From assembly GCA_045568075.1 (NCBI GenBank), contig JBJLBP010000001.1, positions 780,001-812,000 on the forward strand: a stretch of DNA of 32,000 nucleotides. The letters are read 5' to 3'. The notes beneath the pieces are model-generated. The model made no database searches and was not told the origin of the DNA. It was given only the letters and a program-made list of their open reading frames with translations. The stretch comes from Candidatus Thalassarchaeaceae archaeon (GTDB taxonomy: Archaea; Thermoplasmatota; Poseidoniia; Poseidoniales; Thalassarchaeaceae). This document shows, piece after piece, positions 12,326-30,566 of this stretch. Each line of letters opens with the position of its first letter. The stretch's first letter is position 1. The translations under genes and the position numbers were made by a program.

Positions 12326-13381
12326 TCAATTGCTTAGACGGCGAAGCAGGGCTTCGAGGCTGAAGTTTGGACAGTGTTTCTGATGCAGGTTTGCTAATGG
12401 TATCCAAGCCAGTGTATGGGCGAAAGTGATTGTGAAAGCTGGGATGACGGCTAGTCTTGGTTGCCCCATCATGTAGGATGCGGCGAGGCCGAGGACTGCG
12501 AAGTGAAGGACGTAAATTGTCAATGTCAGACGTCCTGATGCCTCGATGAATGAGAGATTGATGAATCCGCGTTGGGCATTTAGCAGCAGCACTTCGTGTG
12601 CAATAAAAACGAACATTGTTGTGATGAAGACGAAGAATACTGATGCGGGGAAGAAGGTCAGAACCGCGTCTCCCTCAGTCAGTGCCCAAGCTGTTCCATT
12701 TCTGACCGAGAGAATGATACTGGCAAGGAGGACGAATCCTCCCATCTGAATAATTCCCAACCTGAGTCTTTGATTTTCTTCGCTTTCAGCGAGTATTGCC
12801 CCCAGTGTCGATAATGCAAACCATGGCAAGACGGGGTAAGTGCCGTTGACTAACAAACGCTGGAACCACTCACTTGCTCCGGCCGCATCGACGCGCTCAA
12901 ACCAACTCAGATCAGATCCGTTCAAATCGCCAACGAGCAATGGCGTAATGGCGAAAATTGCGAATAATCCAATCAAGTTCTCAACACGTAAGCGCGCGAT
13001 GAGTGGTGCAACAATCGCCGCCAATGCTAGTAGTGTCAAGACCCCAGGAGTGTGCCACTCGAAGCGTCCGCCACGCTCAGCGGCGAGTAAGATATTGACG
13101 AGGATTTGACAGGCAGTGAGTACCAGAACGCGCGGTAGAACCCAATCGACCCACGCGCGTGAAGCCAATCCATCGGCAAAGCGCTTCTTTGCCCCTCGAT
13201 GCATTCCCCAGCCTGAGACAGTAACAAAGAGGGGTGCGGCCATTCCTCCGAAAGCTGCGGCGACAAAGGCAGCGGGATGACCAACACCGATGCCTTCAGG
13301 TGGCAAGATTGCCGCCGTATGGACTTCAACCATGAATAGGATTGCAATCGCCTTCATCTGGTCGATATGACCTAGCCGCAC
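12326..13381 (-). CDS. Polytopic membrane protein, DUF1624 (HGSNAT-like) / acyltransferase-3 superfamily
   Basis: N-terminus R-L-G-H-I-D-Q-M-K-A-I-A-I-L-F-M-V-E-V-H matches the R..(I/L)D..(R/K)(G/A).A....M...H signature. About 10 hydrophobic helices follow. The ORF opens at GTG 13435, which would overlap deoA by 50 nt. GTG 13381 lies 4 nt after the deoA stop, and ATG 13357 is also possible. Confidence 0.65.
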   Translation of the reverse strand: MRLGHIDQMKAIAILFMVEVHTAAILPPEGIGVGHPAAFVAAAFGGMAAPLFVTVSGWGMHRGAKKRFADGLASRAWVDWVLPRVLVLTACQILVNILLAAERGGRFEWHTPGVLTLLALAAIVAPLIARLRVENLIGLFAIFAITPLLVGDLNGSDLSWFERVDAAGASEWFQRLLVNGTYPVLPWFALSTLGAILAESEENQRLRLGIIQMGGFVLLASIILSVRNGTAWALTEGDAVLTFFPASVFFVFITTMFVFIAHEVLLLNAQRGFINLSFIEASGRLTLTIYVLHFAVLGLAASYMMGQPRLAVIPAFTITFAHTLAWIPLANLHQKHCPNFSLEALLRRLSN

Positions 13382-13385
13382 AACA

Positions 13386-14663
13386 TCACCTGATAATGTC
13401 CGTGATTCGTGATTGCAATTCAATCTCCCCCTCACTCAAAATGAATGCTGATGCCAATGATTCGGATAGGCCAGCAGGCAATTCGCCCCTATGGTAAATG
13501 ACGAGCAGTGGGTCACCTTCTTCGACAGATTCGCCTACTTGAACCTCGAGGATTAGGCCGACGCAGTGGTCGATTTCGTCGCCAAGAGCGCGTCGGCCGG
13601 AACCGAGTTCGAGGCATGCCCGAGCCACAGTCATCGCCTCGATATCAGCGACCATTCCAGTGGCTTCTGCGAAGACCTCGGTCGAGAGTAGTGTTTCATC
13701 GAGCAGACCGAGTCCGCTCAGGAGTGCGTAATCGGACTCGAGGATCGAAGTGTCTCCACCTTGAGCCTCGACCATCGCACGGAAGCACGCAAGCGCGCTG
13801 CCATCATTCAGAGAATCGTGGATTTTCAGCGCGCCCTCCTCCATATCTGCGGCCAAGCCAGCAGCGGCTAGTAGCAACCCTCCTTGGACGCAAACCAGTT
13901 CCTCCAAATCGTGCGGACCACGACCGCAAAGAGTCTCGACACTCTCGACAATTTCCAGAGCGTTTCCTACAGCGCAGCCCAGGGGCTGGTCCATCGTAGT
14001 CAATACAACTGAGGTAGCAACGCCCATTCCGTTGGCAGCCCCGGCCATCGAGTGTGCAAGTTCCTCTGCCTGTTCGCGCTCGACCATGAAAGCCGCCCGA
14101 CCATATTTGACATCTAGAACCAGAGCGGACAATCCTTCAGCAGTCTTTTTGGAAACGATTGAAGAAGTGATTAGCGGAATCGAAGCCACAGTCTCTGTCA
14201 AGTCTCGCAAAGCGTACATTCGACGGTCGGCCGGGACAAGTGAATCGGTCTGTCCGACCATCACACAACCGATCTTTGCTACTTGCGCACGAACCTCATC
14301 AGTTTCTAGGTCGACTCGAAATCCAGGGATACTCTCCAATTTATCGAGCGTCCCACCAGTATGCCCCAGCCCGCGTCCAGAAATCATAGGCACCTTCGCC
14401 CCGCAAGCAGCAAGAGCGGGGGCCAGAGGAATCGAGACCTTGTCACCGACACCACCCGTCGAATGTTTGTCGACTACGAGGTGCGCCCATTCAGCCGGCC
14501 ATTCGAGTACCTCGCCCGAGTCGCGCATGGCTTCAGTAAGCCGAATAGTCGACTCGCTATCGAGTCCATTCTCGAACACATTTCGTAACCATTCAATGAG
14601 TTCGTCATCGGCTAGAGTTCCGTCCACGACCGCTTTGACCAAACGCCCAATCGGGTCGCTCAT
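13386..14663 (-). CDS. deoA: Thymidine / pyrimidine-nucleoside phosphorylase
   Basis: VVDKHSTGGVGDKVS and ISGRGLGHTGGTLDKLESIPGF are nearly identical to bacterial and human TP motifs. At 425 aa it lacks the N-terminal extension of archaeal AMP phosphorylase. Confidence 0.88.
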   Translation of the reverse strand: MSDPIGRLVKAVVDGTLADDELIEWLRNVFENGLDSESTIRLTEAMRDSGEVLEWPAEWAHLVVDKHSTGGVGDKVSIPLAPALAACGAKVPMISGRGLGHTGGTLDKLESIPGFRVDLETDEVRAQVAKIGCVMVGQTDSLVPADRRMYALRDLTETVASIPLITSSIVSKKTAEGLSALVLDVKYGRAAFMVEREQAEELAHSMAGAANGMGVATSVVLTTMDQPLGCAVGNALEIVESVETLCGRGPHDLEELVCVQGGLLLAAAGLAADMEEGALKIHDSLNDGSALACFRAMVEAQGGDTSILESDYALLSGLGLLDETLLSTEVFAEATGMVADIEAMTVARACLELGSGRRALGDEIDHCVGLILEVQVGESVEEGDPLLVIYHRGELPAGLSESLASAFILSEGEIELQSRITDIIR

Positions 14664-17600
14664 GCCTCGTCCTCGCCGTGTTCATCGCGGAGTTCTTCGA
14701 TGCTCATTCCTTTGTCAAGCATCCATTGGACTTGGTCGCGGTCAAGTTCCTCAAACCCGAAACCATCCAACACAATGGCACCATGAACGCCATCGTCGCG
14801 ACCTTCGGTCCACTCGCGAGTATCGACCGAATCTTCATCGAAGCGTGTACCCTTGAGTATCGCCCGCTCGGCATCGGCATCATCGAATCGGTAACCAGAA
14901 TCATCGATTAGCCGTTCTTCGGTCCTTATCCGTGGCCGTTTGACTAAAGTCAGTCCAGCGCCCGCAAGAGCAATCGCAGCGATAAGTGTCAGTCCCAGAA
15001 GAAACTTAGCTCCTGGAGCAGATAGGGGATTCTCACGGACATTGATGATGCCACCTGTATCGTCGTCATCACCATTGTTCGAATCGCCATCGCCAGTATC
15101 AGAACCACCATCACCATCTCCGGGATCGGTGGTTCCCGTGCCATCATCGCAGCCGAATTGGACACCATCTGCTACGCCGTTATCGTCGACATCATTCGAA
15201 TTCATCGAAGCTGATGGCGCACGCATCACTGATTGAGCGAAGGCTGGCTCATCACCATCGAGAATACAATCATCATCGGTATCACTATCATTGGGGTTTC
15301 CTCCTAGTAAGTACTCATCTAAATTATTCAAACCATCTTCATCCAAATCAAGTGATTGTTCACTCAATGCGGTTCCAAGTATTGCCGCCGAGTGGCGATT
15401 TAATCCATGTTCTATTTCCCAAAAATCGGGTAATAAGTCCCCATCTGAATCTGTTAAACTGTCCAATCGATTCCAATCTTCTTCGAATGATTGTAGGTAT
15501 TCAGAAGTCAATTCCTGATTGTGAATTAAAACTCCCATTTCTCTATTCCTCAAGGCTGCGTTTGAGCCCCAATTCATACTCCCAACGAGAACACTCTCTC
15601 CATCGATTATTGCCCCTTTATTGTGTAGTTTCACAATCGTATCAGATGAGGCCATAATTCTAGCAGTTGTGTCTAGCCCTTGAGTAGCATTCCAATCGGT
15701 GTTGAACATTTGTACAGCATCTCTGATTTCATCATCTTGGTCAACATAAAACCCGTTCAACAATAGACGGACCTTAACTCCTCGAAGCGCTGCTGAATGT
15801 ATTGCTTCAATAATTGGATTTTCGCCGAATCCCCAATACCAATCTAGATCTAGATATTGAACAGAAAGTTCGATCGATGTATCCGCAGAATCAATCATTT
15901 CGATTATCCCATCAACGCAATCATCCGGACAGGTAATCAATCGTAAATCGAATGGCCCTGAATGGTAAACTGGCGGTGTAATTTCCCCATCAAAGCTAGG
16001 CTCTTCCATCACCCAATCAAAAGTTGGAGCATGGTTGTTTGAATGAGCTGAAATGTGTAGATGCATCTGATTCTCATCCCATGCCATTCGCGATAATACC
16101 AATTCTGCGAATGATTGAGAGTTGACGATTACGGACCATTCCCTATTTCCGATTCCATCAGGTGGTAAGCTAGAATCCTTCCAATTGCCAGAGGAAATCC
16201 ATACACTTTCTGAATCTCTAACCGATACCTTGCTGTGAATATACGTGTAAGGTGAACTGATGACGCTTGGATCATCCATCCAGAGAACAGTTGCTCCAGC
16301 ATCGTGAAGAGTTTGTGCGTGTCCACGTTGGTTGTTTTTCGTACTGCTACCATCTAGGATTCCTTCTTCAAGAAGAATGCTTACTGAAACGCCCCTAGAA
16401 ATCGCTTCCAATAGGGCATTGGTCAGGTCTGGGCTCATGGACTGATAGACATGTAAATGGATTGATGAATCCGCTTGATTTATCCAGTGTAATAGATCAT
16501 TGAATCCAGTTTCTGGACTGATAGAAGCGGTTGCTGAGGAGTCCATCTCGGTGGACAAAAATCCACCATCACAAAAAGTCGAGGCACCGATTCTAATCCA
16601 TCTATATTCCCAATCTGATCCAGCATCTGTGTCTGGGTAGTCTCCACAACCGGTCCCTCGCATCAAAATTAGACCGGGAGTGCCATCTCCTGGAACTGAA
16701 ATTGCGGCTCCATTCCAACCATCGATTTCTGCAATCCCGCCTCCGAAGGCTATTGCATCTACAACAGTTCCATCGGGTGCTTTCAATTGCAATGAGCTTC
16801 CTGAATCAACCAGCCATGGCATATTGTTCATGACGACATTTCCATCCAAAGCGGCAATCCCTCCGTCGGAGAGAAGATTTGCTGGGTTCTCAGTTAGGAC
16901 AACCGATTCTCCTGCAGGTATTACCAACTCATTGAAATTCGAAATCCATGGGGTCGTTGAACGGATTCTTTCAACTGTCCAGCCGTTCAGGCTAACTTCT
17001 TCATCTCCAGTATTTGTAATCTCAAACCAATCGTTATCTCTATTTGGGACCTCACTGGGCATAATTCTAGTGAATTTCACATCAAATTCGTTGTCCCAGT
17101 CAGAAGGGGGTGATGGGGGCTGCCAGTGCCACAACATGTTGTTGCTATGCTTACCACTATCTTCTGCAATCAGCAGGCTACCATCATTGAGCACTGCGAG
17201 ATTATCTGGCCCTGCGATATTGTTGACATCACATTGACCGGATGAATAGGTTCCTCCAGAAACCACGGGATCGATTCTATTTACATCCCAATTGTCTACT
17301 ATTTCTAGGCTGTAAATCAATCCGCACCTATTCTCTGATAGTCTAATGTCACCTGAAGAATCGGTCATATCATACCTGATATCTGACATTGCTAGGTATA
17401 GGTAGTCAGGTGCGTTTTCGTTGAATACTACACCTTCCATCTTGTTCCATTCAACAGTTGCACCCAAAGCTGCTGCTGCCTTCCGTGATTCCAAGAATGC
17501 TACACGATTGTCAGCAGCGAATCCAATGTTTCCATCTCCGTCAAGATCGTCGTTGAGCGTATGTTCAGCCCAATCGTTGATTTCTTCATCTGAAATATAC

Positions 17601-19255
17601 GAATTCTGACCTGAGGCATAATCCATTGTCCCAATTCCATCGTATTCATCGATCCATCCTTGGATTGAAGCAGAGTTTGAAGATGCTAATTCCACCCAAA
17701 TCACATCAAATCCAGTTGTAGATGGATTTGTCCCAGCGTCTTGATTGACTTTTGCGGCGTAAAGAGTACCTGCGTCTAAATTCCCTGGCGAATCTGCGAT
17801 GAACTTGAAGAGCCCAGTCCCGTATTCATCATCAGACAGGTAAACTGTCTTCCTGTCTGGCATGACTTGTGCATTCTCATGGGAAAATCTACCCATCGCA
17901 AAATGCTTCTCCAAGGTTGGAGCATTCGTATCAGCATCATCCATCTCGATTATCCAGCCATAATCGTATGGATTCGGATACTCCCCTAGATAATCAGCCA
18001 ACTCTAGTTGGTCATCGTGGTAATTGTAATTTGGATTATTCCAATCAACAGTATTAGAGAAATACAATTCCTCAGACAATAAAGGGGTCCCCCATGGACT
18101 CAAAGAACCAAAGCATAGAACCCAACCTCCATTGATTCCACTGAGATCAAGCATTTTCCCTCCCAGAATATCCCAGCTTCCTTCGAAACTATTCCATTCA
18201 ATGTGAAGTTGACTAACTCCTGCGGGTCGACTTTCCCATGTTGAGTAGAGATAGCCTTCAGTTTCTCCCGAATTTGTTGCAACAAATGCGTTGAAATCAG
18301 GCTTTTCGCTAGTGAATAATAATTCTCCATCGTCTGCTGCATAAATCCCACCAGCAACCTCTCCATTCCCTAGATTGTCACCACTCTGCAACAAGGCCTG
18401 ATAGGTTCCAACAGATGTTCTGACGCCATGCCAGATTTCTGATTGGCTACTAGAAGAAGGGAGTTCTGGGATGTCATCGGGTAAGTCATTCCAGTCAAAT
18501 CCATTGATTACTCCAATCGTGGCTTTGTAAGGGTCGTCAGGATGCATAGAGCTGACAAATAAATTCCCTAGAGAATTCACGTGTAGACCAGTAACTTCTG
18601 CTCCGTCGGGTACCATCATAATTCTCGTCAAATCGGCAGGAGTACCTTGGTCATCCTCTCCACCACCATCTCCTCCAATATTCTCGCTACCCGGAGTTGG
18701 TTGTTCTGAATTAATCCATTCAGAAACTCCATCTGATGGTATCTTTGAAACGCCGTTTGAAGCCTCTCCGGTTGTTACTTCGTGAACCACATTACCTTGG
18801 CTATCTGTTAGGAATAGAGTCTCACCGCCATTATTGATACGAAGAGTTCCGATTTCATTCTCAGCGATTATTGCGTAATCTCCAGCTTCGATGAAATAAG
18901 GGGTTGTTAATTCCTCAAATCCAACCCAACTGCTGGAATTAATCGGATGAGTCCAGCCACCAACGTCAACAATTGTCCATCCTTCTAGACTAATTTCAGA
19001 GGGTCCAGTATTGAGCAACTCCACCCATTCGCCTTGAGGGAAAATACCTTGATCTGATCCATCTGCATTTGGCATGACTTCGTTGATGCAGATGTTGCAA
19101 GATTCTGTGGATTCGGACGACTCAAATCGTGCTGATTCTACTTCGCCATCTAGGAGTTGAGGAGTCATCAATCCCGTTAGCAGCAATGCCATCACGAGCA
19201 GTGCTGTACCCCTAGTTGACCCTCGGTGCATCGCCCGCATCGTTCCTTGCTTCAC
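14660..19255 (-). CDS. Giant membrane-anchored ecto-enzyme: signal, lamin-tail domain, PhoX/DUF839-like phosphatase propeller, second lamin-tail domain, PLD-family domain with two HKD motifs, bacterial-type TSP3 repeats, TM helix and a 93-aa cytoplasmic tail
   Basis: LTD1: CINEVMPNADG...GEWVELLNTGPSEISLEGWTI. PhoX-like: MGRFSHENAQVMPDRKTVYLSDDE...GPDNLAVLNDGSLLIAEDSG. LTD2: FTRIMPSEVPNRDNDWFEITNTGDEEVSLNGWTV. HKD motifs are listed as separate features. TSP3: DSDGDLLPDFWE..DEDGLNNLDEYLLGGNPNDSDTDDD. TM: FLLGLTLIAAIALAGAGLTLV followed by KRPRIR. The start could be GTG 19255, ATG 19240 or ATG 19231. Confidence 0.85.
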   Translation of the reverse strand: MKQGTMRAMHRGSTRGTALLVMALLLTGLMTPQLLDGEVESARFESSESTESCNICINEVMPNADGSDQGIFPQGEWVELLNTGPSEISLEGWTIVDVGGWTHPINSSSWVGFEELTTPYFIEAGDYAIIAENEIGTLRINNGGETLFLTDSQGNVVHEVTTGEASNGVSKIPSDGVSEWINSEQPTPGSENIGGDGGGEDDQGTPADLTRIMMVPDGAEVTGLHVNSLGNLFVSSMHPDDPYKATIGVINGFDWNDLPDDIPELPSSSSQSEIWHGVRTSVGTYQALLQSGDNLGNGEVAGGIYAADDGELLFTSEKPDFNAFVATNSGETEGYLYSTWESRPAGVSQLHIEWNSFEGSWDILGGKMLDLSGINGGWVLCFGSLSPWGTPLLSEELYFSNTVDWNNPNYNYHDDQLELADYLGEYPNPYDYGWIIEMDDADTNAPTLEKHFAMGRFSHENAQVMPDRKTVYLSDDEYGTGLFKFIADSPGNLDAGTLYAAKVNQDAGTNPSTTGFDVIWVELASSNSASIQGWIDEYDGIGTMDYASGQNSYISDEEINDWAEHTLNDDLDGDGNIGFAADNRVAFLESRKAAAALGATVEWNKMEGVVFNENAPDYLYLAMSDIRYDMTDSSGDIRLSENRCGLIYSLEIVDNWDVNRIDPVVSGGTYSSGQCDVNNIAGPDNLAVLNDGSLLIAEDSGKHSNNMLWHWQPPSPPSDWDNEFDVKFTRIMPSEVPNRDNDWFEITNTGDEEVSLNGWTVERIRSTTPWISNFNELVIPAGESVVLTENPANLLSDGGIAALDGNVVMNNMPWLVDSGSSLQLKAPDGTVVDAIAFGGGIAEIDGWNGAAISVPGDGTPGLILMRGTGCGDYPDTDAGSDWEYRWIRIGASTFCDGGFLSTEMDSSATASISPETGFNDLLHWINQADSSIHLHVYQSMSPDLTNALLEAISRGVSVSILLEEGILDGSSTKNNQRGHAQTLHDAGATVLWMDDPSVISSPYTYIHSKVSVRDSESVWISSGNWKDSSLPPDGIGNREWSVIVNSQSFAELVLSRMAWDENQMHLHISAHSNNHAPTFDWVMEEPSFDGEITPPVYHSGPFDLRLITCPDDCVDGIIEMIDSADTSIELSVQYLDLDWYWGFGENPIIEAIHSAALRGVKVRLLLNGFYVDQDDEIRDAVQMFNTDWNATQGLDTTARIMASSDTIVKLHNKGAIIDGESVLVGSMNWGSNAALRNREMGVLIHNQELTSEYLQSFEEDWNRLDSLTDSDGDLLPDFWEIEHGLNRHSAAILGTALSEQSLDLDEDGLNNLDEYLLGGNPNDSDTDDDCILDGDEPAFAQSVMRAPSASMNSNDVDDNGVADGVQFGCDDGTGTTDPGDGDGGSDTGDGDSNNGDDDDTGGIINVRENPLSAPGAKFLLGLTLIAAIALAGAGLTLVKRPRIRTEERLIDDSGYRFDDADAERAILKGTRFDEDSVDTREWTEGRDDGVHGAIVLDGFGFEELDRDQVQWMLDKGMSIEELRDEHGEDEA
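15572..15625 (-). other. Second HKD catalytic motif
   Basis: L-H-N-K-G-A-I-I-D-GESVLV-GSMN (residues 1211-1228), a perfect HxKxxxxDxxxxxxGSxN. Confidence 0.8.
16184..16237 (-). other. First HKD (phospholipase D superfamily) catalytic motif
   Basis: I-H-S-K-V-S-V-R-D-SESVWI-SSGN (residues 1007-1024). The HxKxxxxD part is exact and the GSxN part is degenerate. Confidence 0.7.
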
Positions 19256-19362: not shown

Positions 19363-22092
19363 TCAATCTTCATCTTCGGATCTCGCGCCGTTGAGGCCGA
19401 TTGCTCCGTAGACCAACAATGAGACGCCTGCGATGTAGAGCACAGCGGTCACTATGTCGATGACCATGGTTCCTTCAAGTTCGCAGTCACCTTCTCCACC
19501 GAAATCAGTCCAGTACATTGGGTCCATATTGTCTAGAACCTTACACTTGAAAGTCTCAGCATCTTCATCAGCAATTTCAGATGCTGTGTGGATTTCGAAT
19601 ACTGGCTTTGCATCTCCTGCCTCAAAGTCAGGGTTAGTCATTCCAGCACCTCTCAAGTCTAGATAGAATCGAGATACAGACTTACCATACATTGCAACAT
19701 TTGTTGTTGGTTCGACCTTGATGTCAACATGAGATCCGAAGTAAACTGGTAATGCACCAGGTAGGACATCTACGAAACTATTGGAAGCAATTAATTTCGC
19801 CTGTATTTGATTTTCAGCAGGGTCCAAATCTACGGTGTGTTCGCGCATCGGTATTCCCTTGAAATCAGTCATTTCACCAGGTACGCTCTCTGCAATAGAA
19901 TAGCCTACTAGATTAACTGAGAATGAGTCATCAGCGTCAGCTATTCCTCCAATTGTTCCAGCAACAACCGTGTTGCTGTTACCGATATTGTCAGTCAGAA
20001 GTCCGTATGTTGCTGCCTCTCTGTGAGGGGCGCGCCATGGTAGGTGTTCGGTCATACCATAGATTTCTCCTTCATCACAGGGATAACCACCATCTGAATC
20101 AGCATCTGCAACAGTGCCATCAGCATTCAACTTGAAGTCACACTGTCCATCTCCATCAGAATTTGTGTATCCTTGCATCAGTCTCTGTCCAAGAGTTTCA
20201 TCATTAACAATACTCATCACATAGACGTCGTAATCTCCAGTGCTCAGACCATCAGGTCTGTCCTCATTCTGAGATCCAAAGTAAGTCATGTTAGTCTCTA
20301 GTTTAACCCACGAACTTTCTTCATCGTAAAGTCCTGTAAGTACTGGATCACTCCACCCATACAACCAATTTTCAATTGGTTGAGTGGTATACGGGCTTGC
20401 TCCATACTGGAATCCGAGTAGAGAACCAATTACAGATTCAAACATGAAGTCCTTCACCCAACTGCGTACAGCCGCAGCATCATTCTCAGATATGTCGTAT
20501 AGTGAAGCAACGTATGCATCATCCCAATCGGCAACAACTCCTCCCATCGCTGGTCCTTCTGCAGTCATTGGTAGTGTTATTCCTGATAATTCATTATACA
20601 TGAAAACACGAGAAAAGCTTTCGTCAGTTAGAGCATAATCAGATGTGTAAAGGATTTCTTGTACCTTCTCAATCGATAAGTCGACAGTTCCTTCATATGA
20701 TCCTTGATTCAAGCCAATTGAGATATATCCTCCAGCAAGTGGTTCTTCTCCACCAAAGGAGTGCTGCCACCATAGGTCACAATCCATCATCCCCGACCCT
20801 CCAACGAGAATCATCGGGAAATTGGTTGGTTGGCCGACCAAGCCAATCCATCCACCTGCATAATCAGATAGAGCAAGTAATTGCGTCAGGCCGATGCCGT
20901 AGTCGAGCATTGTTGTGAAGGCATCAGCGTCGGCTCCTAGAAGGAAGAGAGCAACTCCGGCTAACGGAATTCCATTGTAATCCGACATTGAGAGAAGACC
21001 ATTTGCAATCTCAGCACCTTCAACTCCGAAAATTATATTGTTGAGCGCAACAGCATTTGAGATATCGACACCAGAAACCGCATTCAAGCGCTCGCGAAGG
21101 TCTGTTACTTGAGTCAAATCTGCACCTCCACCCTGTTCTAGCCATTTAGCGCCAGCCATTGCATAAACCGACCAGTCAGTCAGGCTATCCGATGCATCGT
21201 AGCCGTAGAGAGCGGCGCGAACCGGGGTGGTCGCAGCACTCGGCTCTCCAATTCCTGCTGCTAGCATTGGACCGATGTCACAAGTAAGCGCGATACAGAC
21301 TCCAGTTGAGGGGTCGGCTGCATCGTATAGGATGCTAGCGGCGGTCGAAGAGAAATCAGGATCCATTGGGCCCGCTCCGCCGGCCGATGCATTCCATGAA
21401 TCGTAGGCGCCATCCATCACCATGACTGGCGCCATAGCGGCGGCGGTAGCTGCATCGTATCCAGCGGCTTCGAGTTGCGCAGCAACACCATCGATACTGG
21501 CACTAATTTCATCAGCGGCCCACATCGACGGAGCCTTATTTTGCAAATCATTTGCCATCATCTCATTGGCAAAACCAGCCTTGGCGAAAATTTCGCCGTA
21601 AATGATTCCAGTTGCGATGCCAGCTAGTCTCTGGGTGTTGTATAGAATATTCATATTTGTGAATTCAGTTGAACCTGGAAGTGAAGCATGTTCGTTACCC
21701 TCATCATCAGTCCATGTGCAGTTTTCACACCATTCAAAGACGTCATATTCAGAGTAAGTAACGGTTCCAGCCTCTGTATCAAGGCCAAGAAGCGTTCTGT
21801 GGGTTGTAACTTCATAGACGAATGGTCCCATCTTTTCGAATTCGGCATTTACCGCAGAATTTTCTGTTAATTCATCGACATTAGTTATTGAATAACCGAA
21901 GTAAGATCTTTCGGAAGTAGATACGCTCCATTCATCATCATAATCCTCTTCTGAATCATAACCTGCTGCAATAGTATCGCCTACTCCAGCCTCTACCTGA
22001 CCTGCCACAAATGGGGCTAAGGCCATGAAGTTCATTCCGATTAATACAAGTCCTGCAAGTGCGATTGCGGTCGCCTTTTGTCTGTCATCCAT
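19363..22092 (-). CDS. CD36 / scavenger-receptor class B (LIMP-2) family-like membrane protein with N- and C-terminal TM helices and a large insertion
   Basis: The hairpin topology is an N-terminal TM (AIALAGLVLIGMNFMALAPFVAG) plus a C-terminal TM (VIDIVTAVLYIAGVSLLVYGAIGL). Ordered matches to CD36-family motifs are FEKMGPFVYEV, GTVTYSEYDVFEW, EFTNMNIL, ENWLYGWSDPVLTGL, KGIPMREHTV, LPVYFGSHVD, RFYLDLRGAGM and KPVFEIHTASEIADEDAETFK. ATG 22092 has GGAGGT 12 nt upstream. The ORF extension to 22212 overlaps the upstream gene and adds a non-membrane leader. Confidence 0.7.
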   Translation of the reverse strand: MDDRQKATAIALAGLVLIGMNFMALAPFVAGQVEAGVGDTIAAGYDSEEDYDDEWSVSTSERSYFGYSITNVDELTENSAVNAEFEKMGPFVYEVTTHRTLLGLDTEAGTVTYSEYDVFEWCENCTWTDDEGNEHASLPGSTEFTNMNILYNTQRLAGIATGIIYGEIFAKAGFANEMMANDLQNKAPSMWAADEISASIDGVAAQLEAAGYDAATAAAMAPVMVMDGAYDSWNASAGGAGPMDPDFSSTAASILYDAADPSTGVCIALTCDIGPMLAAGIGEPSAATTPVRAALYGYDASDSLTDWSVYAMAGAKWLEQGGGADLTQVTDLRERLNAVSGVDISNAVALNNIIFGVEGAEIANGLLSMSDYNGIPLAGVALFLLGADADAFTTMLDYGIGLTQLLALSDYAGGWIGLVGQPTNFPMILVGGSGMMDCDLWWQHSFGGEEPLAGGYISIGLNQGSYEGTVDLSIEKVQEILYTSDYALTDESFSRVFMYNELSGITLPMTAEGPAMGGVVADWDDAYVASLYDISENDAAAVRSWVKDFMFESVIGSLLGFQYGASPYTTQPIENWLYGWSDPVLTGLYDEESSWVKLETNMTYFGSQNEDRPDGLSTGDYDVYVMSIVNDETLGQRLMQGYTNSDGDGQCDFKLNADGTVADADSDGGYPCDEGEIYGMTEHLPWRAPHREAATYGLLTDNIGNSNTVVAGTIGGIADADDSFSVNLVGYSIAESVPGEMTDFKGIPMREHTVDLDPAENQIQAKLIASNSFVDVLPGALPVYFGSHVDIKVEPTTNVAMYGKSVSRFYLDLRGAGMTNPDFEAGDAKPVFEIHTASEIADEDAETFKCKVLDNMDPMYWTDFGGEGDCELEGTMVIDIVTAVLYIAGVSLLVYGAIGLNGARSEDED

Positions 22093-22189
22093 AGTGCTCA
22101 CTCTACCTCCCCACGTGTGCGTATATGGGATAAGCGATTCTATCCATACGAACTGACAATATCTTCGTTTGAGATTTTGATTCGACGCC

Positions 22190-23845
22190 TCAAGCGAAAC
22201 CGAATGCGTCAATTTCGCGGGCGAATGTATAGATCATAATAGGTACCAGAATCACACCCATTCCGTGCGATCTTCGGATGCCGATTCTCGGTGCCATGAG
22301 CCCGATCATCGTGCCAATCACTAGCGTCCCCACTCCAATCCAATCTGTTGAGATCCACACAAGTATTGTGATGAAAACACTGACTCCGATTACCAGGTTT
22401 CGGAGCGGCACCAATTCGTGCATCTTTAGCATCCCCTTTCCGACCTCAATCATCACCGGTACAGCGAACAGTCCAGACGCGACAGTTATGGCGAGCAGTC
22501 TAATGAAATCGGCCGGTGGTTCGACCGCGTTCCAGATGTCTATAGGATACATCATGTTGAGTGCAAGGGCAGCTCCTGAGCGCGGTCTTCCGACCATGTA
22601 GAGGAAGCCGAGAACCATCACCGTAACCGCTGTGTTAACCGATGAAAGAATCGCGATGATTTCGAGGTCACGCTGTTGGTTATTGTTGACAAGATCTAGG
22701 TCGGGAGTTGCTCCAGCGTCGGCCAGCGCTTCTTGGAACAACTCGCGGTCTTTGAGAGGGAGTTCCTCCATCCCTTCGAAGACCATGACTTGTGGCATCG
22801 ATTCGAAGCCCGGCTGGGTGCCATGTTCGAAGTCAGCCGGGATGTAATTAGGATCGGTCAGTTTACCCCAGAAATTTCGCGCGCTCATCACCACGACAGT
22901 CGCTTGAGCAGCAGTCATCCCAGGCAGAATCGCCATCACCGACGAGACAACGGCCGACAAGAACGTCGGAACCATCAGTGGTTTAGGATCCGGCATTTCC
23001 CAATTAGGCTCCTGAGGGGGAATTTCACTCGTCGTCACGTAGATGTCAATCAGGTTAGCGATTCCAAACAATCCTGCCAAACTTGGGAATAGCAAGGATG
23101 CTGAAGGAATCCCAACTGGCGAGCGCGCAGGCAATTCGAAAACTGCCCATCCGTAGAATCCGGTAAGCAGGAAATACGCCGTAGCTACCAGAATCCCTGC
23201 AGTCCGCGAGCTCTCACCCAAACGGAAGTCGATGGCGTCGTAGCGCCTTCGGATGCTGAAACGACCCATCGGGATGGTGAACTCGATTGGTTTCTTCAAT
23301 GCCCACTTGAGCCGATTCGTCACTTTCTGAGACCACATCGGCCAAGGAAGCCGTGTTGTTTCAGTCATAATCAGAAAAATCGAGATGAAGAGCAACAACC
23401 AAGGAAGTTGGTCGCGACTCGCTTCATACAATCCTAATCCCGGATCATCGCCAAAAAGTAATCTTGCTACAATAAGCAGTGGAATCGACATCAGCATGCC
23501 CATTTGTGAGCCGCGCGCTGAGTAAGCGACTCCTTGCGCGGCCTGACCGGAAATCAACATCCGATGCCCGGGCAGAAGGGCGAGCGCCATGTTATCATCA
23601 GGAGCACCTACCAAGGCGCTCGGAATATAATTCAGGAAAGTATGGACAGTCCCACAGGCCACAATAATCCCCGCTACAGCGTCCAGCGGGATGCCTATCC
23701 CTACAGCGACTGGGGAAAGTGAGAGAGCGATTAGGGCGACGTTATTGACGTGGAAGCCAGGAATCAAGCCCGTTAAGCAACCGAGAAATATTCCGAAAAC
23801 GAATGACCCGATTAGCCACGCATAATCAATCATCCACGGGTCCAC
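22190..23845 (-). CDS. TctA-family / DUF112 polytopic membrane permease-like protein
   Basis: At least 10 hydrophobic helices. GCLTGLIPGFHVNNVALIAL and a second ILPGMTAAQATVVV copy the TctA G..PG(l/i)g motif. HTFLNYIPSALVGAPDDNMALALLPGHRMLISGQAAQGVAYSARGS parallels the TctA IL.NIPGE....T.LDGY.M...GRAG.AL pattern. GTG 23845 lies 3 nt after a GAGGTGAT box. Confidence 0.65.
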   Translation of the reverse strand: MDPWMIDYAWLIGSFVFGIFLGCLTGLIPGFHVNNVALIALSLSPVAVGIGIPLDAVAGIIVACGTVHTFLNYIPSALVGAPDDNMALALLPGHRMLISGQAAQGVAYSARGSQMGMLMSIPLLIVARLLFGDDPGLGLYEASRDQLPWLLLFISIFLIMTETTRLPWPMWSQKVTNRLKWALKKPIEFTIPMGRFSIRRRYDAIDFRLGESSRTAGILVATAYFLLTGFYGWAVFELPARSPVGIPSASLLFPSLAGLFGIANLIDIYVTTSEIPPQEPNWEMPDPKPLMVPTFLSAVVSSVMAILPGMTAAQATVVVMSARNFWGKLTDPNYIPADFEHGTQPGFESMPQVMVFEGMEELPLKDRELFQEALADAGATPDLDLVNNNQQRDLEIIAILSSVNTAVTVMVLGFLYMVGRPRSGAALALNMMYPIDIWNAVEPPADFIRLLAITVASGLFAVPVMIEVGKGMLKMHELVPLRNLVIGVSVFITILVWISTDWIGVGTLVIGTMIGLMAPRIGIRRSHGMGVILVPIMIYTFAREIDAFGFA

Positions 23846-23848
23846 GGA

Positions 23849-23856
23849 ATCACCTC
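23849..23856 (-). promoter_or_regulatory. Shine-Dalgarno box (GAGGTGAT) overlapping the stop codon of the upstream gene
   Basis: The minus strand reads cgcTGAGGTGATtccGTG. The box is complementary to the canonical archaeal 16S 3' end AUCACCUC. The TGA of the 532-aa gene lies inside it, and GTG 23845 follows after 3 nt. Confidence 0.55.
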
Positions 23857-25453
23857 AGCGGATATCGATACAGAACTGCATTGTGTTACCAAATGAATCC
23901 TCGGCTGTTGAGAGTCGTCCAGTCCAATCGATTGGTGCTCCAATCGATTCTTGCTGACTTGCTTCGGTTCCGTCTCCGAGTAGACAAACTTGCTCATCGG
24001 AGCCGGATCTCTGAATCCATTGATTTCCATCCTCATCCATTGTGGCTTCTCCATTGAGGATGACTAACTTTCCAATATCCCATTTCCATGAATTGTAACC
24101 ATCTCCCCAATTCAGGGTCGTCGGTGAGGGTGCTTGGCCAAGTGTCCAAGCGCGCGCTTCGAGGATAACTCGCCCTTCACTCTCAGACCAAATCACGGTC
24201 GCGTTGAATCGAATCGCCTGCCCTGATTCGATATATTCGGCATGTTCTCCGATGAGATGCAGCCTCAATTTCGTCGTGCGCGAATAGTAATCGGGGCCAT
24301 CGCCCACGTAGCCCTTGTCGTAATCGGGCGATATCGGATCAGTCACCCAACCCTCGAATGTGTAATTCTGACCGATGAAAGCGAAGGGGTTCTCGGCGAC
24401 ATCGAGCATAGCTGTGACATCATCGCCGAACTGTCCCGTTGGATTATCCGCCGAGGAGTCGTAACCAAGACGCTCGAGACAAATCGTCGCCTCGTCGGTT
24501 GACCAGACTAGTCGGCCTGACCAGGTCTTTGTCGAATTTTCAATTCCTTCACTGAGATCGGCAGGTGAAGGAAGTAAACACAATCTGTCTGTCGGCGCAT
24601 CACCAGTAAGCCACCAACCATCAGAGGCCTCGGTCGCTGTACCGTCAATTCTGACCTTTTTCCCAACTTCGTAAGTCAGCGTATACGGTTCAAGCTCCCA
24701 AGAAAGATCCACAGTCGATCCATTATTCAGCACCTCGACCGCAGTCGCTTGCACTAGGAGTCGCCAGCGCAGTGAGCGCTGGTCATATTGCAGCCAGCCG
24801 GAAATTTCTACATGGCTGCCTGCCTCAACCCAATCCATCACACGGCCCTCAATTTGCATGTACAATAGATGGTCAGCGTTACCATAGGAAGGGTTGTCCA
24901 TCAAGCTCAGAGAGTGGTAAGTAACGTCAGGTTCAAGCGGTTCTGAGAGGTATCCATCAACCCTCACTGACATATTCGAGAATGCTTCGGGATTCATGGC
25001 GACTTCGACCAATTGCATTGCAGTGTAATCGATTCCATCACAATCTGTGTCCGCACATTGAATCGCACCGTATCCATTGGAAGAAAGCCAAATTCGACCA
25101 TTCCATTCAGTGACTTCACCCTCGACCGTGACAATTGTCCCAATTGGGGGGATATCGATGTCTCGGTCGACGAACCAACGAACTTCGAGAGCTGAGTGCC
25201 CGTCGACCTCACGGATTTGCAAATCAATTCGATCAGCCTGTTCTCCATAAGGGTCGACAACGAAGCTAGTTAGTACACCTTTGATTTTGACAGTCTCGCG
25301 CGGATATTCATGAATTTCGTCCATATCAATCATATCCGGTTCACGAATAACCGCATAGAAATTCATTGTCGATACAAGTAGCAAGGCAGTGAAGAACATC
25401 ACCCAGAGCTTCGCCATGTGTCTGCGATGTGCGAGCAATGCTTGAACATTCAC
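23855..25453 (-). CDS. Membrane-anchored extracytoplasmic protein built from about five OB-fold-like repeats (hypothetical)
   Basis: N-terminal anchor HRRHMAKLWVMFFTALLLVSTMNFYAVI. Repeats have the tRNA_anti/OB pattern V+I+G.L......(acidic)..L.I.D..g.l.V.........G..V.V.G.V..W.G.. (VKIKGVLTSF..., VRVDGYLSEP..., VRIDGTATEA..., YTFEGWVTDP..., LVILNGEATM...). Start is GTG 25453 or ATG 25417. Confidence 0.6.
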   Translation of the reverse strand: MNVQALLAHRRHMAKLWVMFFTALLLVSTMNFYAVIREPDMIDMDEIHEYPRETVKIKGVLTSFVVDPYGEQADRIDLQIREVDGHSALEVRWFVDRDIDIPPIGTIVTVEGEVTEWNGRIWLSSNGYGAIQCADTDCDGIDYTAMQLVEVAMNPEAFSNMSVRVDGYLSEPLEPDVTYHSLSLMDNPSYGNADHLLYMQIEGRVMDWVEAGSHVEISGWLQYDQRSLRWRLLVQATAVEVLNNGSTVDLSWELEPYTLTYEVGKKVRIDGTATEASDGWWLTGDAPTDRLCLLPSPADLSEGIENSTKTWSGRLVWSTDEATICLERLGYDSSADNPTGQFGDDVTAMLDVAENPFAFIGQNYTFEGWVTDPISPDYDKGYVGDGPDYYSRTTKLRLHLIGEHAEYIESGQAIRFNATVIWSESEGRVILEARAWTLGQAPSPTTLNWGDGYNSWKWDIGKLVILNGEATMDEDGNQWIQRSGSDEQVCLLGDGTEASQQESIGAPIDWTGRLSTAEDSFGNTMQFCIDIR

Positions 25454-25820: not shown

Positions 25821-25842
25821 GGCTTAATCCGGCCTTGAGTTG

Positions 25843-26781
25843 ATGAGCACTGCAAGTAAGGTCCGACCGGCCCTAATGATGCTGGCGGTATACTTCCTGA
25901 GTACTTGGGCCGGCGTGGCCGCTGTTCAGGCACAAGGTGCGGTCCCAGATATCGTGCTGACTTGTGACCAACCTCAGCCTATTGATGTCAATCCTGGAGC
26001 AACCAGATCAGGTATTATCAATTGTAGAATCGAGAATCCGACAGTCCACCAAGAGAAGGTAAGGATTCAGATTCAAGCAGGTGTTCTCGCCTTCTCAGGC
26101 CCCGCTACTCTATCGATAGGTGGCGGCTCTGAGGTTTCATTCCAAGTCATGGTCAGGGCCGAATTGAGAGCTCCTGAGGGTCAGCACCAAGTTACTGTTA
26201 GTGCAGAGGTGACTATGGCAAATGGAATCCCAGTTACTAGCGAGCCATCGGCTGCGAACTCGATGGTTATCATCCGCCAATTCAGCCGACTTCGAGTCGC
26301 TTCGGAAGTAGCCTTCCTTCAATTGCGGCCGAAGGTCGATTACAATCTGGTATTCGATGTCTACAATGATGGTAATGCCTTGGACAGATTCAATATCGCT
26401 ATCGAGAATTACGACGATCTCAACGATGAGGGATTCCAACTGAGCATACCTCTCGTGAGTGTAGAAATCGAATCGATGGCGCCACCTGAGAAGATTAGAG
26501 TTCAGATGCGCACCCCTAAGAATCAAGGTTGGACTGACAAATACTTCTCACTCCAATTCAAGGCGACTTCGGAATACTCGGTCCGAACAGAAGGAATTCC
26601 GAATTACCAAATTCAAACCATGACGATCTACATCCGTGGTGTCTATCTGCCTGGCTTCGAACTCATTGGCACTATGATGATGACAACACTCGCTGCTGCT
26701 GCTATTGCAGGTCGCAGGCCAATTGTTAGGTCTGAGGAAGCATCAGACGAATTGGAACCACTTGATGCGCGGCTTTTCTAA
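25843..26781 (+). CDS. Secreted envelope protein with two Ig/CARDB-like beta-sandwich modules and a PGF-like membrane anchor followed by an acidic tail (hypothetical)
   Basis: Signal ALMMLAVYFLSTWAGVAAVQAQG. The C-terminus is LPGFELIGTMMMTTLAAAAIAGRRP followed by 20 further residues (IVRSEEASDELEPLDARLF). TTG 25840 and ATG 25843 are adjacent candidate starts. Confidence 0.7.
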   Translation: MSTASKVRPALMMLAVYFLSTWAGVAAVQAQGAVPDIVLTCDQPQPIDVNPGATRSGIINCRIENPTVHQEKVRIQIQAGVLAFSGPATLSIGGGSEVSFQVMVRAELRAPEGQHQVTVSAEVTMANGIPVTSEPSAANSMVIIRQFSRLRVASEVAFLQLRPKVDYNLVFDVYNDGNALDRFNIAIENYDDLNDEGFQLSIPLVSVEIESMAPPEKIRVQMRTPKNQGWTDKYFSLQFKATSEYSVRTEGIPNYQIQTMTIYIRGVYLPGFELIGTMMMTTLAAAAIAGRRPIVRSEEASDELEPLDARLF

Positions 26782-26872: not shown

Positions 26873-28096
26873 ATGAGTGATGGTGGATTGCTTCAGAAGG
26901 CGATGGAACAGCAATCGAGCGACACAGAATTGGTCGCTGAGGCCGTGGTAGTACCTCCAAAAGGAGGCCCGATGTTCAGTAACAGCCTCAAGTTAGGTCT
27001 TGCACTCGCACTGGTCTCTGTAGTCTCGATGTGGATATTTTCCTCTCCTTCAATCCAGAGCGATTGGTCATTCGTGATTCTCCTCCCGATTATGATGGGG
27101 GGTGCATCGTTCTGGTTCATTTGGAATGGAATCGGGCGAAAGCACACAGAGGTCATTTCGGTTGTGCTGATTCTCCTTCTAGCCTCCCCATTCATGGCGA
27201 TGAGCGTCTCATCGAGCTCTCTTACAATTACAGATAGCACACTCTCGAGCGATGCTACGACAATCACTCTCACCATTCGTGAGTCCGGCGGGCTATTCGG
27301 TTCTGCCTCTGGTGACGCCGATGTCTCAGTATCTTACGGTGGAGAAGAGGTTTGGACCACTTCTATGCCATTCGCTGTTAATTTGAAAGATGGATACGGA
27401 GATTATGGCCAATTGGTTCTCCCAATCGTCTCTTTCTATTCAGATAATGCTGCTGATGATGCGAAGTACATTGTATCGATTGATGTCGATGGGGCTTCCG
27501 ATACATACATCTTGAATTCCGCTCACCTTGAGCGAACAGTTGAGCAAGTGAAGAACGAGGCATTGGCAGCTATAGGAGAAGGAAACGATTGCGATGGTGG
27601 CCACGATAATTGTGTCATCGGTGTCGGTCTTCGAACTTGGGTGGGTTTGCCTCGAATGTCGCAGGCAAATGACCCCGATCCACGCCCAGCCCCTCTCGTT
27701 CATGCTGATTTCGAAATGTCTGCAGTGCTCAGTAAGGATGGAGTGACTGCAATTGAATATCCAACTGTTACTGTGACTAATGGTGAAGCAATCTGGGATT
27801 CCGAAAGCGGGGTGTATGGGTCTGGAAGCGCTGAAGTTGGTGACTTCGGATCGGAATTAAGTCTACCAGGGTCAGTTGATGACTTCGTTATTGGTATGCC
27901 ATACATCCCAAGAGATGATTGGCAAGAGAATGATTACGGCTGCTACGAATTTACTGTCACCCTCACTCAGAGCCCACCTTGGGGAGATCGAACAGCCCAT
28001 ACGGCCTCCAAGTACTACGAACTCGTCGAAGAAGGCGGCGATGAAGATGGAAGTCCAGATACCCACGAGTCCTGGAACGAAGTCAGTAGTTGCTGA
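26873..28096 (+). CDS. Membrane protein with three N-terminal TM helices and a ~290-aa extracytoplasmic domain (hypothetical)
   Basis: GGAGAGGT box 6 nt upstream of the ATG. TM segments are LKLGLALALVSVVSMWIF, FVILLPIMMGGASFWFIW and VISVVLILLLASPFMAM. I recognise no family motif. Confidence 0.7.
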   Translation: MSDGGLLQKAMEQQSSDTELVAEAVVVPPKGGPMFSNSLKLGLALALVSVVSMWIFSSPSIQSDWSFVILLPIMMGGASFWFIWNGIGRKHTEVISVVLILLLASPFMAMSVSSSSLTITDSTLSSDATTITLTIRESGGLFGSASGDADVSVSYGGEEVWTTSMPFAVNLKDGYGDYGQLVLPIVSFYSDNAADDAKYIVSIDVDGASDTYILNSAHLERTVEQVKNEALAAIGEGNDCDGGHDNCVIGVGLRTWVGLPRMSQANDPDPRPAPLVHADFEMSAVLSKDGVTAIEYPTVTVTNGEAIWDSESGVYGSGSAEVGDFGSELSLPGSVDDFVIGMPYIPRDDWQENDYGCYEFTVTLTQSPPWGDRTAHTASKYYELVEEGGDEDGSPDTHESWNEVSSC

Positions 28097-29788: not shown

Positions 29789-29867
29789 ATCCTCGTCGTG
29801 TGTCGAGCCACCAATGAAGCAATCGGCGGCATGAGCGGTAAACCGAGAGTTCTTCTCGCATGAACTA

Positions 29868-30566
29868 ATGGCGACAACGATGACTGACGTGTCGGCAATA
29901 TCCTTCCCCTCTTCTGGGGGCGTCGAGTTCGCTCTGAACATCCTCACTGTACTCATTGTCTATGGCCCCGCTTACCTCGCAAACACTGGGGCTATGTTGT
30001 GTGGTAAGTGGGTGCCCGATAAGCTTGGGTTGGAGAATCATAAGATTGACGGAGGACGGGTGCACACTGACGGAAATCGTATGTTGGGCGATGGAAAATC
30101 TTGGGAGGGTCTTTTTGGTGGAGCATTTTTTTCTGGAATTTTAGTTGTAATCGCACATTGGCTGTGGGCAGGGAATACCGGCCCCTCAGATCGCCCTTTT
30201 ATCGATCCAATTTTGACTGCAGATTCAACTGATTGGTTCTGGATTGGTGGAGAATGGAGTGCCGCATTTATTCTTGGCTTCACTCTAGGATTTGCTTGCA
30301 TGTTAGGTGATATGGCCGGGTCATTTGTCAAGCGCAGACAGGGCTTGAAGCGAGAGGGAGAGGTAAGCTCGAAGGCACCTTTGCTGGATACACTGCCATT
30401 TGCAATTTTCATCTTCCTAGCTGCAGCTATTTTGTTCAACGACCAAGTCATAATGCACTCGCATCTAGCGCCTTCAATAATTACGATAATTATTCTAACT
30501 CCAATAATCCATCGCTCATTCAATATCCTGGGTTATCGCTTGGGGCTGAAATCAGTTCCATACTGA
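29868..30566 (+). CDS. carS: CDP-archaeol synthase (CDP-2,3-bis-O-geranylgeranyl-sn-glycerol synthase, DUF46 family)
   Basis: PAYLANTGAML, IDGGRVHTDGNRMLGDGKSWEGLFGG, GDMAGSFVKRRQGLKREGE..APLLDTLPF. These match the conserved cytoplasmic-loop motifs of archaeal CarS. The protein has five or more TM helices. Confidence 0.8.
   Translation: MATTMTDVSAISFPSSGGVEFALNILTVLIVYGPAYLANTGAMLCGKWVPDKLGLENHKIDGGRVHTDGNRMLGDGKSWEGLFGGAFFSGILVVIAHWLWAGNTGPSDRPFIDPILTADSTDWFWIGGEWSAAFILGFTLGFACMLGDMAGSFVKRRQGLKREGEVSSKAPLLDTLPFAIFIFLAAAILFNDQVIMHSHLAPSIITIIILTPIIHRSFNILGYRLGLKSVPY

Follow-up and report, generated by a model that had tools for sequence, protein, structure and literature searches.

A very likely CD36-superfamily protein with an enlarged apex domain in marine group II archaea

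Can an archaeon encode a protein of the CD36 family? This question is raised by a 32,000-nucleotide stretch of DNA from a Candidatus Thalassarchaeaceae archaeon (contig JBJLBP010000001.1; the whole stretch is called the window here), in which an earlier note had recognised a homologue of CD36 and LIMP-2 carrying an insertion of about 400 residues. The class B scavenger receptors (SR-Bs) CD36, LIMP-2 and SR-B1 are described as having a tunnel or cavity for lipids or fatty acids. The host belongs to marine group II (MGII), uncultured archaea that are the most abundant planktonic archaea of ocean surface waters. We are highly confident that the 909-residue protein in question, encoded on the reverse strand of the window, is a true, very divergent homologue of the CD36 superfamily.

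The Pfam profile of the family (PF01130) matched the protein in two stretches with 36.7 bits against a gathering score of 26.5 (E = 2.4e-9). After in silico excision of residues 151-565, the insertion, the match became a single stretch that crosses the junction (34.2 bits, profile positions 52-223 of 463); therefore, the insertion lies inside the CD36 domain. For a profile of 14 orthologues compared with the sequences of the PDB, the seven best matches were all LIMP-2/SCARB2. These were marginal (E ~0.1) and formed two collinear stretches, one over the GP(F/Y)xY region and the other over a helix followed by WLxGWxD. Searched against 1.84 billion representative proteins, the same profile reached PF01130 proteins of Asgard and other archaea with E-values of 1e-8 to 1e-4. 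The proteins reached beyond the MGII family are strong PF01130 members in Pfam (E 1e-63 to 1e-83), and several of them come from Promethearchaeota.

Since the Pfam profile was blind to the C-terminal half, we compared this half separately by hhalign. An MGII-wide alignment matched an alignment of Asgard PF01130 proteins over the C-terminal halves at 98.3 % (E = 1.6e-14, 264 columns). Both alignments were also cut into an N-terminal core, the insertion and a C-terminal core. The N-terminal cores matched each other at 98.8 % (E = 1.4e-16) and the C-terminal cores, cut out in this way, at 95.5 % (E = 1.4e-8), while all six mismatched pairs of regions, which served as controls, remained at or below 0.4 %.

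The earlier note had paired eight motifs with counterparts in human CD36 and LIMP-2. Seven of these pairings agree with the HMMER or hhalign alignments, and the coordinates given for GPFVYE (21811-21828) and ENWLYGWSDPVL (20338-20373) are correct. The eighth was mis-assigned: RFYLDLRGAGM, taken as the counterpart of YLDIEPITG / FVDINPLTG, aligns instead with RFQINIYV of LIMP-2, and the actual counterpart is VDIKVEPTTN (residues 789-798). In the N-terminal barrel part, residues 62-127 are matched by a PF01130 stretch, and G89, P90 and N148 are invariant over 33 sequences, Asgard-type proteins included. According to hhalign, the MGII protein is about 22 residues shorter than the Asgard proteins and LIMP-2 between the PVxxSxPHF and VEPxTG regions.

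An AlphaFold2 model computed from 33 sequences spanning the superfamily reached a predicted local distance difference test (pLDDT) score of 85.4 and a predicted template modelling score of 0.75. It contains beta strands at residues 57-147 and 568-840, a mostly helical domain at about 150-565 and long terminal helices at 3-43 and 875-906. In a Foldseek search of the PDB, ranks 1-13 were occupied by LIMP-2/SCARB2 and CD36 (E 5.5e-6 to 1.2e-4, probability 1.00), with alignments of 345-367 columns that cover about 90 % of the target. Ranks 14-17 were LmcA of Mycobacterium smegmatis (E 1.3e-2 to 2.9e-2, probability 0.97-0.99), and the matches after rank 17 were noise (E >0.3). As a control, a search of viral structures with the same model returned nothing at E <=1e-3. 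The model thus shows the asymmetric antiparallel beta-barrel fold common to LIMP-2 and CD36, and its likeness to LmcA is consistent with a relationship at the level of the superfamily only. In general, the family membership claimed in the earlier note is borne out by the Pfam profile, the LIMP-2 matches in the PDB, hhalign over both halves and the top of the Foldseek list.

Several observations speak against this conclusion. The PF01130 match is partial (profile positions ~52-223 of 463), and the C-terminal half alone gave no PF01130 match in Pfam. A model built from the 14 close relatives alone had a pLDDT of only 35, and the evidence from the fold is partly dependent on that from the sequence, because the AlphaFold2 alignment held Asgard-type CD36 sequences. 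Moreover, the TM-scores of the Foldseek matches are modest (0.37-0.43 on the target) and the root mean square deviation is about 8 Å.

How widespread is the protein? A scan of one genome per prokaryotic species, whose count covers the MGII-type family only, found at least 357 species-representative genomes that encode such a relative. We compared the loci of the best 80 of these 357 matches (44-100 % identity). All of them come from genomes titled as Poseidoniales, Thalassarchaeaceae, MGII or generic euryarchaeote metagenome-assembled genomes (MAGs), with one exception titled Pedosphaera. This exception (L070, NYYT01000082.1, 'Pedosphaera sp. isolate ARS72', Verrucomicrobiota) has the MGII gene, accompanied by those of a 532-residue protein, a TctA-family permease and a choice-of-anchor T protein, and almost certainly reflects an error of binning. 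Named homologues belong to Candidatus Thalassarchaeaceae or Thalassarchaeum (Thermoplasmatota, Poseidoniales). Flanking genes are kept over the 80 loci, with a divergent choice-of-anchor T gene upstream and genes of an Acyl_transf_3 protein, an M60 peptidase and SHMT downstream, and this conservation fits vertical inheritance. More divergent members of the family occupy unrelated gene contexts.

These data also bear on a sceptical explanation, namely that the resemblance to CD36 is due to chance or that the segment is a mis-binned or chimeric fragment of a eukaryotic genome. Identity to animal proteins is indeed low (10-13 % in the Foldseek alignments and 10-17 % overall), a phmmer search of the PDB with the single window protein gave no match, and GC content is slightly lower than in the flanks. 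Nevertheless, such an artefact is effectively refuted. The open reading frame (ORF) is intron-free and lies between archaeal housekeeping genes, as purE, purD and the genes of a GMP-synthase subunit, SHMT and CDP-archaeol synthase are all found in the window. The same gene with its flanks occurs in 80 Poseidoniales-type loci, down to 44 % identity and on contigs of up to 1.68 Mb, the homology statistics are significant with clean negative controls, and a neighbour-joining tree keeps the MGII clade apart from human LIMP-2 with 96 % bootstrap support. The archaeal setting that the earlier note described is thus real, and its question about a mis-binned eukaryotic fragment is answered in the negative. 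A search of NCBIfam with the protein gave no match.

Hydropathy revealed exactly two hydrophobic segments in the protein, one at each end (Table 1), with an ectodomain of about 830 residues between them and cytoplasmic tails of about 5-8 residues that lack signalling motifs. As these are the only two such segments, the protein has the hairpin topology that had been noted for it, in line with the terminal helices of the model. All 22 inspected relatives share the same topology. The whole protein is very acidic, with 142 Asp and Glu against 33 Lys and Arg residues.

The insertion is a real, selected domain and not a linker. Its pLDDT is mostly 88-96, it was found in every MGII-family member examined, and it is conserved to the same degree as the core (majority-residue fraction 0.53 vs 0.54). 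It holds invariant blocks such as CIALTCDIGPML and YGIGLTQLL, as well as a hydrophobic patch, GIPLAGVALFLLGA. The size, position and character that the earlier note gave to it all hold: between equivalent points the MGII protein has 469 residues (110 to 579) and the LIMP-2 chain 69 (86 to 155), which amounts to a net gain of about 400, and the inserted sequence is rich in Ala (15 %) and Gly (12 %) and mostly helical in the model. It is also strongly acidic (52 Asp or Glu against 11 Lys or Arg).

The insertion sits at the membrane-distal apex, where LIMP-2 and CD36 carry their ligand-binding three-helix bundle. In the model, a helix at residues 151-209 follows the N-terminal core and another, at 536-563, aligns with one apex helix of LIMP-2; both are embedded in a domain of about 415 residues. 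Taken alone, the insertion had no Pfam match at E<=10, no relative outside the MGII family among the 1.84 billion representatives and no fold match of its own in the PDB or among viral structures by Foldseek. Homology between the MGII and Asgard apex insertions was rejected (hhalign 0.4 %, E = 0.16).

A second, smaller lineage-specific insert relative to the Asgard proteins and LIMP-2 was revealed by hhalign at residues ~640-680. This Asp/Gly-rich loop is weakly conserved within MGII (0.36), and judging by its sequence it looks like the calcium-binding DxDxDG motifs of TSP3 or EF-hand-like type. A Pfam 'SGP' match on the loop was below threshold and was treated as noise.

The start of the gene deserves a comment. 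In the ORF list, the longest reading begins at a TTG codon and yields 949 residues (19363..22212, reverse strand). We place the true start, on sequence grounds, at the ATG at 22092, because homologues of about 914-921 residues begin there and the part added by a TTG start would run over the stop codon of TctA, the gene upstream. The first Met is invariant in the alignment of 14 close orthologues. A database representative with 99 % identity and 949 residues (P0001) matches the TTG-start length, that is, 40 additional residues overlapping the TctA stop; since most orthologues begin at the ATG, its start call is probably wrong.

The ribosome-binding site named in the earlier note, GGAGGT, is indeed present 12 nucleotides ahead of the ATG (22105-22110), but it is not conserved. 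Orthologues do not keep it, and Shine-Dalgarno-like 5-mers occur in 8 of 45 orthologous loci against a background of about 9 %, so that we rejected GGAGGT as a conserved site. What orthologues keep upstream of the start, at about -13..-4, is GAGTGA(N)AC (loci L008-L087). This element is a near match to the archaeal Shine-Dalgarno sequence GAGGTGAT (window 22093-22125, reverse strand). A second conserved element, GCRYRCGTG / CACGTG-like, lies farther upstream in orthologues, at about -25..-17.

Where does the protein stand within the superfamily? The neighbour-joining tree mentioned above was built from 296 core columns with 200 bootstraps and is indicative only, with a partial human LIMP-2 sequence taken from the HMMER alignments as its sole eukaryote. 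The split with 96 % support separates the MGII proteins, a 730-residue relative and two proteins of about 525 residues, both encoded on archaeal contigs, from the Asgard-type proteins and LIMP-2. Core identity is 17 % between MGII and LIMP-2, 28 % between Asgard and LIMP-2, and 19 % between MGII and Asgard. Together, the tree and these identities argue against a recent transfer from eukaryotes to MGII, as far as sequence comparison can tell. The phylogenetic placement sought in the earlier note is therefore achieved in part: the MGII proteins stand apart from LIMP-2, but the root of the superfamily is left unsettled because the tree holds one partial eukaryotic sequence and relies on distance methods.

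The Asgard proteins are much closer to the eukaryotic ones. In phmmer, the Asgard protein P0254 matched human LIMP-2 with E = 1.8e-36 and CD36 with E = 5.3e-32, and the best Pfam PF01130 E-value in the Asgard family is 5e-83 (P0230). A profile search with the non-MGII archaeal CD36 family retrieved Asgard proteins only and no eukaryotic ones. Like the MGII protein, the Asgard proteins (e.g. MFX1408260.1) have two transmembrane helices and a CD36 barrel split by an apex insertion (about 250-300 residues), and the two groups are homologous in both barrel halves. Unlike it, they are far closer to eukaryotic proteins, and their apex insertion is unrelated. The named Asgard records are all annotated as hypothetical, and we found no publication on these proteins. 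The family looks like an unreported candidate eukaryotic signature protein.

About 30 clusters of strong PF01130 proteins (P0254, P0299-P0326) were seen in Promethearchaeota, Hermodarchaeota and Hodarchaeota. One Promethearchaeota contig (JBHLNZ010000087.1, L007:2863-8526) carries two tandem PF01130 copies a few kb from a gene for an Arf/Roc-type small GTPase.

A further point of comparison is the actinobacterial PF11271 (DUF3068/PorA) family. LmcA/PgfA (MSMEG_0317, Rv0227c; PDB 7N3V, 7SHW) is a prokaryotic barrel of CD36 fold that encloses cavities, functions in lipid or lipoglycan trafficking and is the second-best fold match of our protein. It differs in that it lacks the three-helix bundle and any apex domain, its Foldseek E-value is only about 1e-2, and the window protein had no PF11271 match at E<=10. 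Three other archaeal proteins (P0223, P0230 and P0254) do touch PF11271, and only P0223 does so above the cut-off. Sequence comparison thus suggests that PF01130 and actinobacterial DUF3068 form one continuous superfamily that includes archaea. P0223 is of canonical size (522 residues; L088:3701-9569, ENA contig NODE_1011, 82.8 kb) and matches PF01130 with E = 2e-16 and PF11271 PorA with E = 5e-9. A 554-residue PF11271 paralogue lies near it, and the contig also carries an archaeal pilin, Nre and a mevalonate-pathway trio.

With animal LIMP-2/SCARB2, CD36 and SR-B1 (PF01130; PDB 4F7B, 4Q4B, 5LGD, 5UPH), the MGII protein shares the hairpin topology, the asymmetric beta-barrel and the presence of helices in the apex, as well as collinear motifs: FxxxNxTN, GP(Y/F)xY, (W/L)LxG(Y/W)xD, PV(Y/M)xS, V/I-E/N-P-x-T-G and P(V/I)xxxxE...I..E.A..F. 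It differs from them in about 400 extra apex residues, about 22 fewer after PVxxSxPHF, the added Asp-rich loop, an identity of 10-17 %, an extremely acidic surface, tails devoid of signalling motifs and an archaeal host. With the SR-Bs of protists it shares the conserved barrel and a large expansion inserted between apex helices, in the same region in both (PMC10715195). Boohar et al. (2023) described lineage-specific apex expansions in these proteins, with non-metazoan ectodomains of 413-2294 residues (PMC10715195), and the MGII ectodomain of about 830 residues falls within this range. A difference is that no relative of the MGII apex was detectable outside Poseidoniales.

What might the protein do? 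We favour as the best explanation, and consider somewhat probable, that it is a divergent archaeal CD36/SR-B member in which the apex captures and the barrel conducts a hydrophobic ligand, most likely for uptake. Proteins with the CD36 fold enclose lipid-binding cavities both in animals and in mycobacterial LmcA, where the cavities span the molecule (PMC8972800). By analogy, the enlarged and very acidic apex would capture a hydrophobic or lipid-bearing ligand outside the cell; candidates are free fatty acids and the lipids of particles, vesicles or phytoplankton debris. Without the use of ATP, the interior of the barrel would then lead the ligand to the cytoplasmic membrane, at its outer face; the same has been proposed for CD36, SR-B1 and LIMP-2. 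Fatty-acid degradation, a pathway encoded by all MGII genera (PMC6461757), may be supplied in this way. From the fold and its known relatives we infer a continuous tunnel, the nature of the ligand and the direction of transfer, and lipid or fatty-acid uptake as the specific role is a tentative proposal, to which we would give a little under an even chance.

Three points count against uptake. The acidic apex makes it unlikely that the chemistry of the ligand resembles that of animal CD36. Next, the nearest functionally studied prokaryotic relatives work in envelope lipid trafficking and not in uptake. Finally, gene context over the 80 loci revealed no consistent functional partner.

The second of these points leads to a different possibility, envelope biogenesis, in which membrane lipids, lipid-linked glycans or lipid-anchored surface proteins would be handed outward or internally, as proposed for LmcA/PgfA. 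We regard this role as unlikely. In its favour, LmcA ranks directly behind LIMP-2 and CD36 among the fold matches, and PgfA/LmcA have a part in lipid trafficking (PMC9678360), as essential factors for the traffic of lipids or lipoglycans (PMC9678360, PMC8972800). The MGII gene itself is housekeeping-like, being order-wide with conserved flanks, and its recurrent neighbours are an Acyl_transf_3 membrane acyltransferase and a sorted choice-of-anchor T surface protein. On the other hand, the window protein lacks any PF11271 match, the stretch between the gene and that of the acyltransferase tolerates insertions, no outer layer that needs a supply of lipid is documented for MGII, and an apex so large and conserved suggests that something outside the cell is recognised.

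A short-apex relative of 730 residues (P0146; L006:8001-13311, on a 1.86-Mb ENA contig) also bears on this question. Its gene overlaps by 8 nucleotides with that of an ABC ATPase, which is followed by an 808-residue FtsX-type permease, and the locus looks like an operon with a MacB/Lol-type transporter. Systems of this type extract or expel substrates from the membrane. We counted this coupling to a MacB/FtsX-type ABC system towards the functional plausibility of the favoured explanation, and it also lends support to envelope biogenesis. It was seen in one lineage only, and no recurrence of the ABC/FtsX coupling was found in other lineages.

Alternatively, the barrel could be only a scaffold. 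In that case the protein would work as a surface receptor or adhesin, with an apex that attaches to a particle, a cell, a virus or a partner protein, and no lipid would be transported; for example, it could dock a secreted enzyme in the way that the LIMP-2 apex binds beta-glucocerebrosidase (GCase), a complex seen in PDB entry 9fjf. Model confidence is highest in the apex, which is also strongly conserved, apex expansions of eukaryotic SR-Bs have been interpreted as diversified ligand sensing (PMC10715195), and the locus is rich in large surface or secreted proteins (the M60 peptidase, an LTD-PhoX-PLD protein and TSP3-repeat proteins). We nevertheless find this role quite improbable. No partner gene is constant over the 80 loci, and there are no cytoplasmic tails for signalling. 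Moreover, conservation of the barrel core is no weaker than that of the apex, an argument for a function of the barrel itself.

How new is the finding? The view, taken in the earlier note, that the family is generally regarded as eukaryotic is true of the searchable literature: the latest survey of SR-B evolution covered eukaryotes only and put the origin of the family at the last eukaryotic common ancestor (PMC10715195). Our search, whose coverage was incomplete and left most subscription journals outside, brought up no publication about CD36-family proteins of archaea, Asgard included. However, databases already tag the MGII proteins with PF01130, one NCBI record is named 'CD36 family protein', and in 2022 the actinobacterial LmcA/PgfA were reported to be relatives with the CD36 fold (PMC9678360, PMC8972800). 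Thus, what is new is a domain of life unreported in the literature and the apex module, whereas the fold and the topology were already known.

We know of no described route of lipid or fatty-acid uptake for MGII, and an order-wide surface protein with a lipid-receptor fold is a concrete candidate that can be expressed and assayed without culturing these archaea. According to prediction, MGII break down both lipids and fatty acids (PMC6461757). The apex domain of 415 residues, with no detectable relatives, is a new module added at the site where the fold is known to sense ligands. Complete PF01130-type proteins, with both transmembrane helices, are present in MGII, in Asgard and in other archaea, which makes at least three archaeal settings, and the closeness of the Asgard proteins to human LIMP-2 reopens the question of the origin of the family, which is now testable by phylogeny. 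One could go further and suppose that the CD36/SR-B lipid-tunnel fold is an ancient archaeal invention, that Asgard archaea carry the direct ancestors of eukaryotic SR-Bs and that Poseidoniales carry an old, independently elaborated branch, whose unique apex would allow the dominant heterotrophic archaea of the ocean to harvest lipids or fatty acids from particles or phytoplankton debris. Such a scenario, under which the MGII protein would be the first candidate lipid-uptake receptor in Archaea, we consider rather doubtful.

Table 1. Features of the CD36-like gene, its product and its neighbours (window coordinates)
Feature	Position	Strand	Details
Coding sequence of the CD36-like protein	19363..22092	-	909 residues + stop; ATG at 22092
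Translation-initiation region	22098..22110	-	GGAGGT (22105-22110) window-specific; GAGTGA (22098-22103) is the orthologue-conserved element
N-terminal transmembrane helix	21994..22077	-	residues ~6-33; tail ~5 residues; hydropathy, AlphaFold2 helix 3-43
N-terminal CD36 beta-barrel part	21643..21960	-	residues ~45-150; YFGYSITN, FEKMGPFVYEV, TNMNIL
Apex insertion domain	20398..21642	-	residues 151-565; mostly helical, Ala/Gly-rich; conserved CIALTCDIGPML, hydrophobic GIPLAGVALFLLGA patch
C-terminal CD36 beta-barrel part	19483..20397	-	residues 566-870; ENWLYGWSDP, KGIPMREHTV, LPVYFGS, VDIKVEPTTN, KPVFEIHTASEIADEDAETFK
Asp/Gly-rich loop	20053..20175	-	residues ~640-680; NSDGDGQCD...DADSDGGYPCD, two Cys (NSDGDGQCDFKLNADGTVADADSDGGYPCDEGE)
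C-terminal transmembrane helix	19387..19479	-	residues ~872-902; tail ~7 residues; hydropathy, AlphaFold2 helix 875-906
Acyl_transf_3 membrane acyltransferase	12326..13435	-	Pfam; 50/80 loci; immediately downstream in about half
Choice-of-anchor T surface protein	25840..26781	+	NCBIfam NF041740, E 6e-78; 60/80 loci; most constant upstream neighbour
Optional upstream pair: 532-residue protein and TctA-family permease	22190..25453	-	Pfam; ~42/80 loci
Optional downstream pair: 1531-residue LTD-PhoX-2xPLDc_2 exoenzyme and nucleoside phosphorylase	13386..19255	-	Pfam; ~39/80 loci

The window is a cluster of genes for cell-surface proteins and exoenzymes. Secreted hydrolases do stand next to the CD36-like gene here, as the earlier note had pointed out, but elsewhere they are optional and absent from roughly half of the 80 loci. 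As only about one locus in two has the upstream pair, and the same holds for the downstream pair (Table 1), these genes are optional neighbours and not obligate partners, and we rejected the adjacent hydrolases as definers of function.

The 1531-residue protein of the downstream pair (14660-19255, reverse strand) is membrane-anchored and has two lamin-tail domains, a PhoX alkaline-phosphatase beta-propeller and two PLD-like domains. GC content falls to about 0.44 over its region. A shorter variant (1065 residues, L001) lacks the PhoX match. Only about half of the loci compared have the gene for the 1531-residue protein together with that of the nucleoside phosphorylase (13386-14663), and the pair may be a module for scavenging extracellular nucleic acids or phosphodiesters.

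Farther from the CD36-like gene, two large surface-type proteins (1964-4603 and 4636-6948, both on the reverse strand) carry bacterial TSP3 calcium-binding repeats, and one of them has a weak match to the Reeler domain. The M60 (enhancin-like) peptidase is a protein of 1323 residues with He_PIG Ig domains (8329-12300, forward strand). Three conserved MGII proteins of 532, 407 and 619 residues (23855-25453, reverse; 26873-28096, forward; 28097-29956, reverse) had no significant match in Pfam or NCBIfam. The 532-residue protein always accompanies TctA, and the 407-residue protein accompanies the choice-of-anchor T gene.

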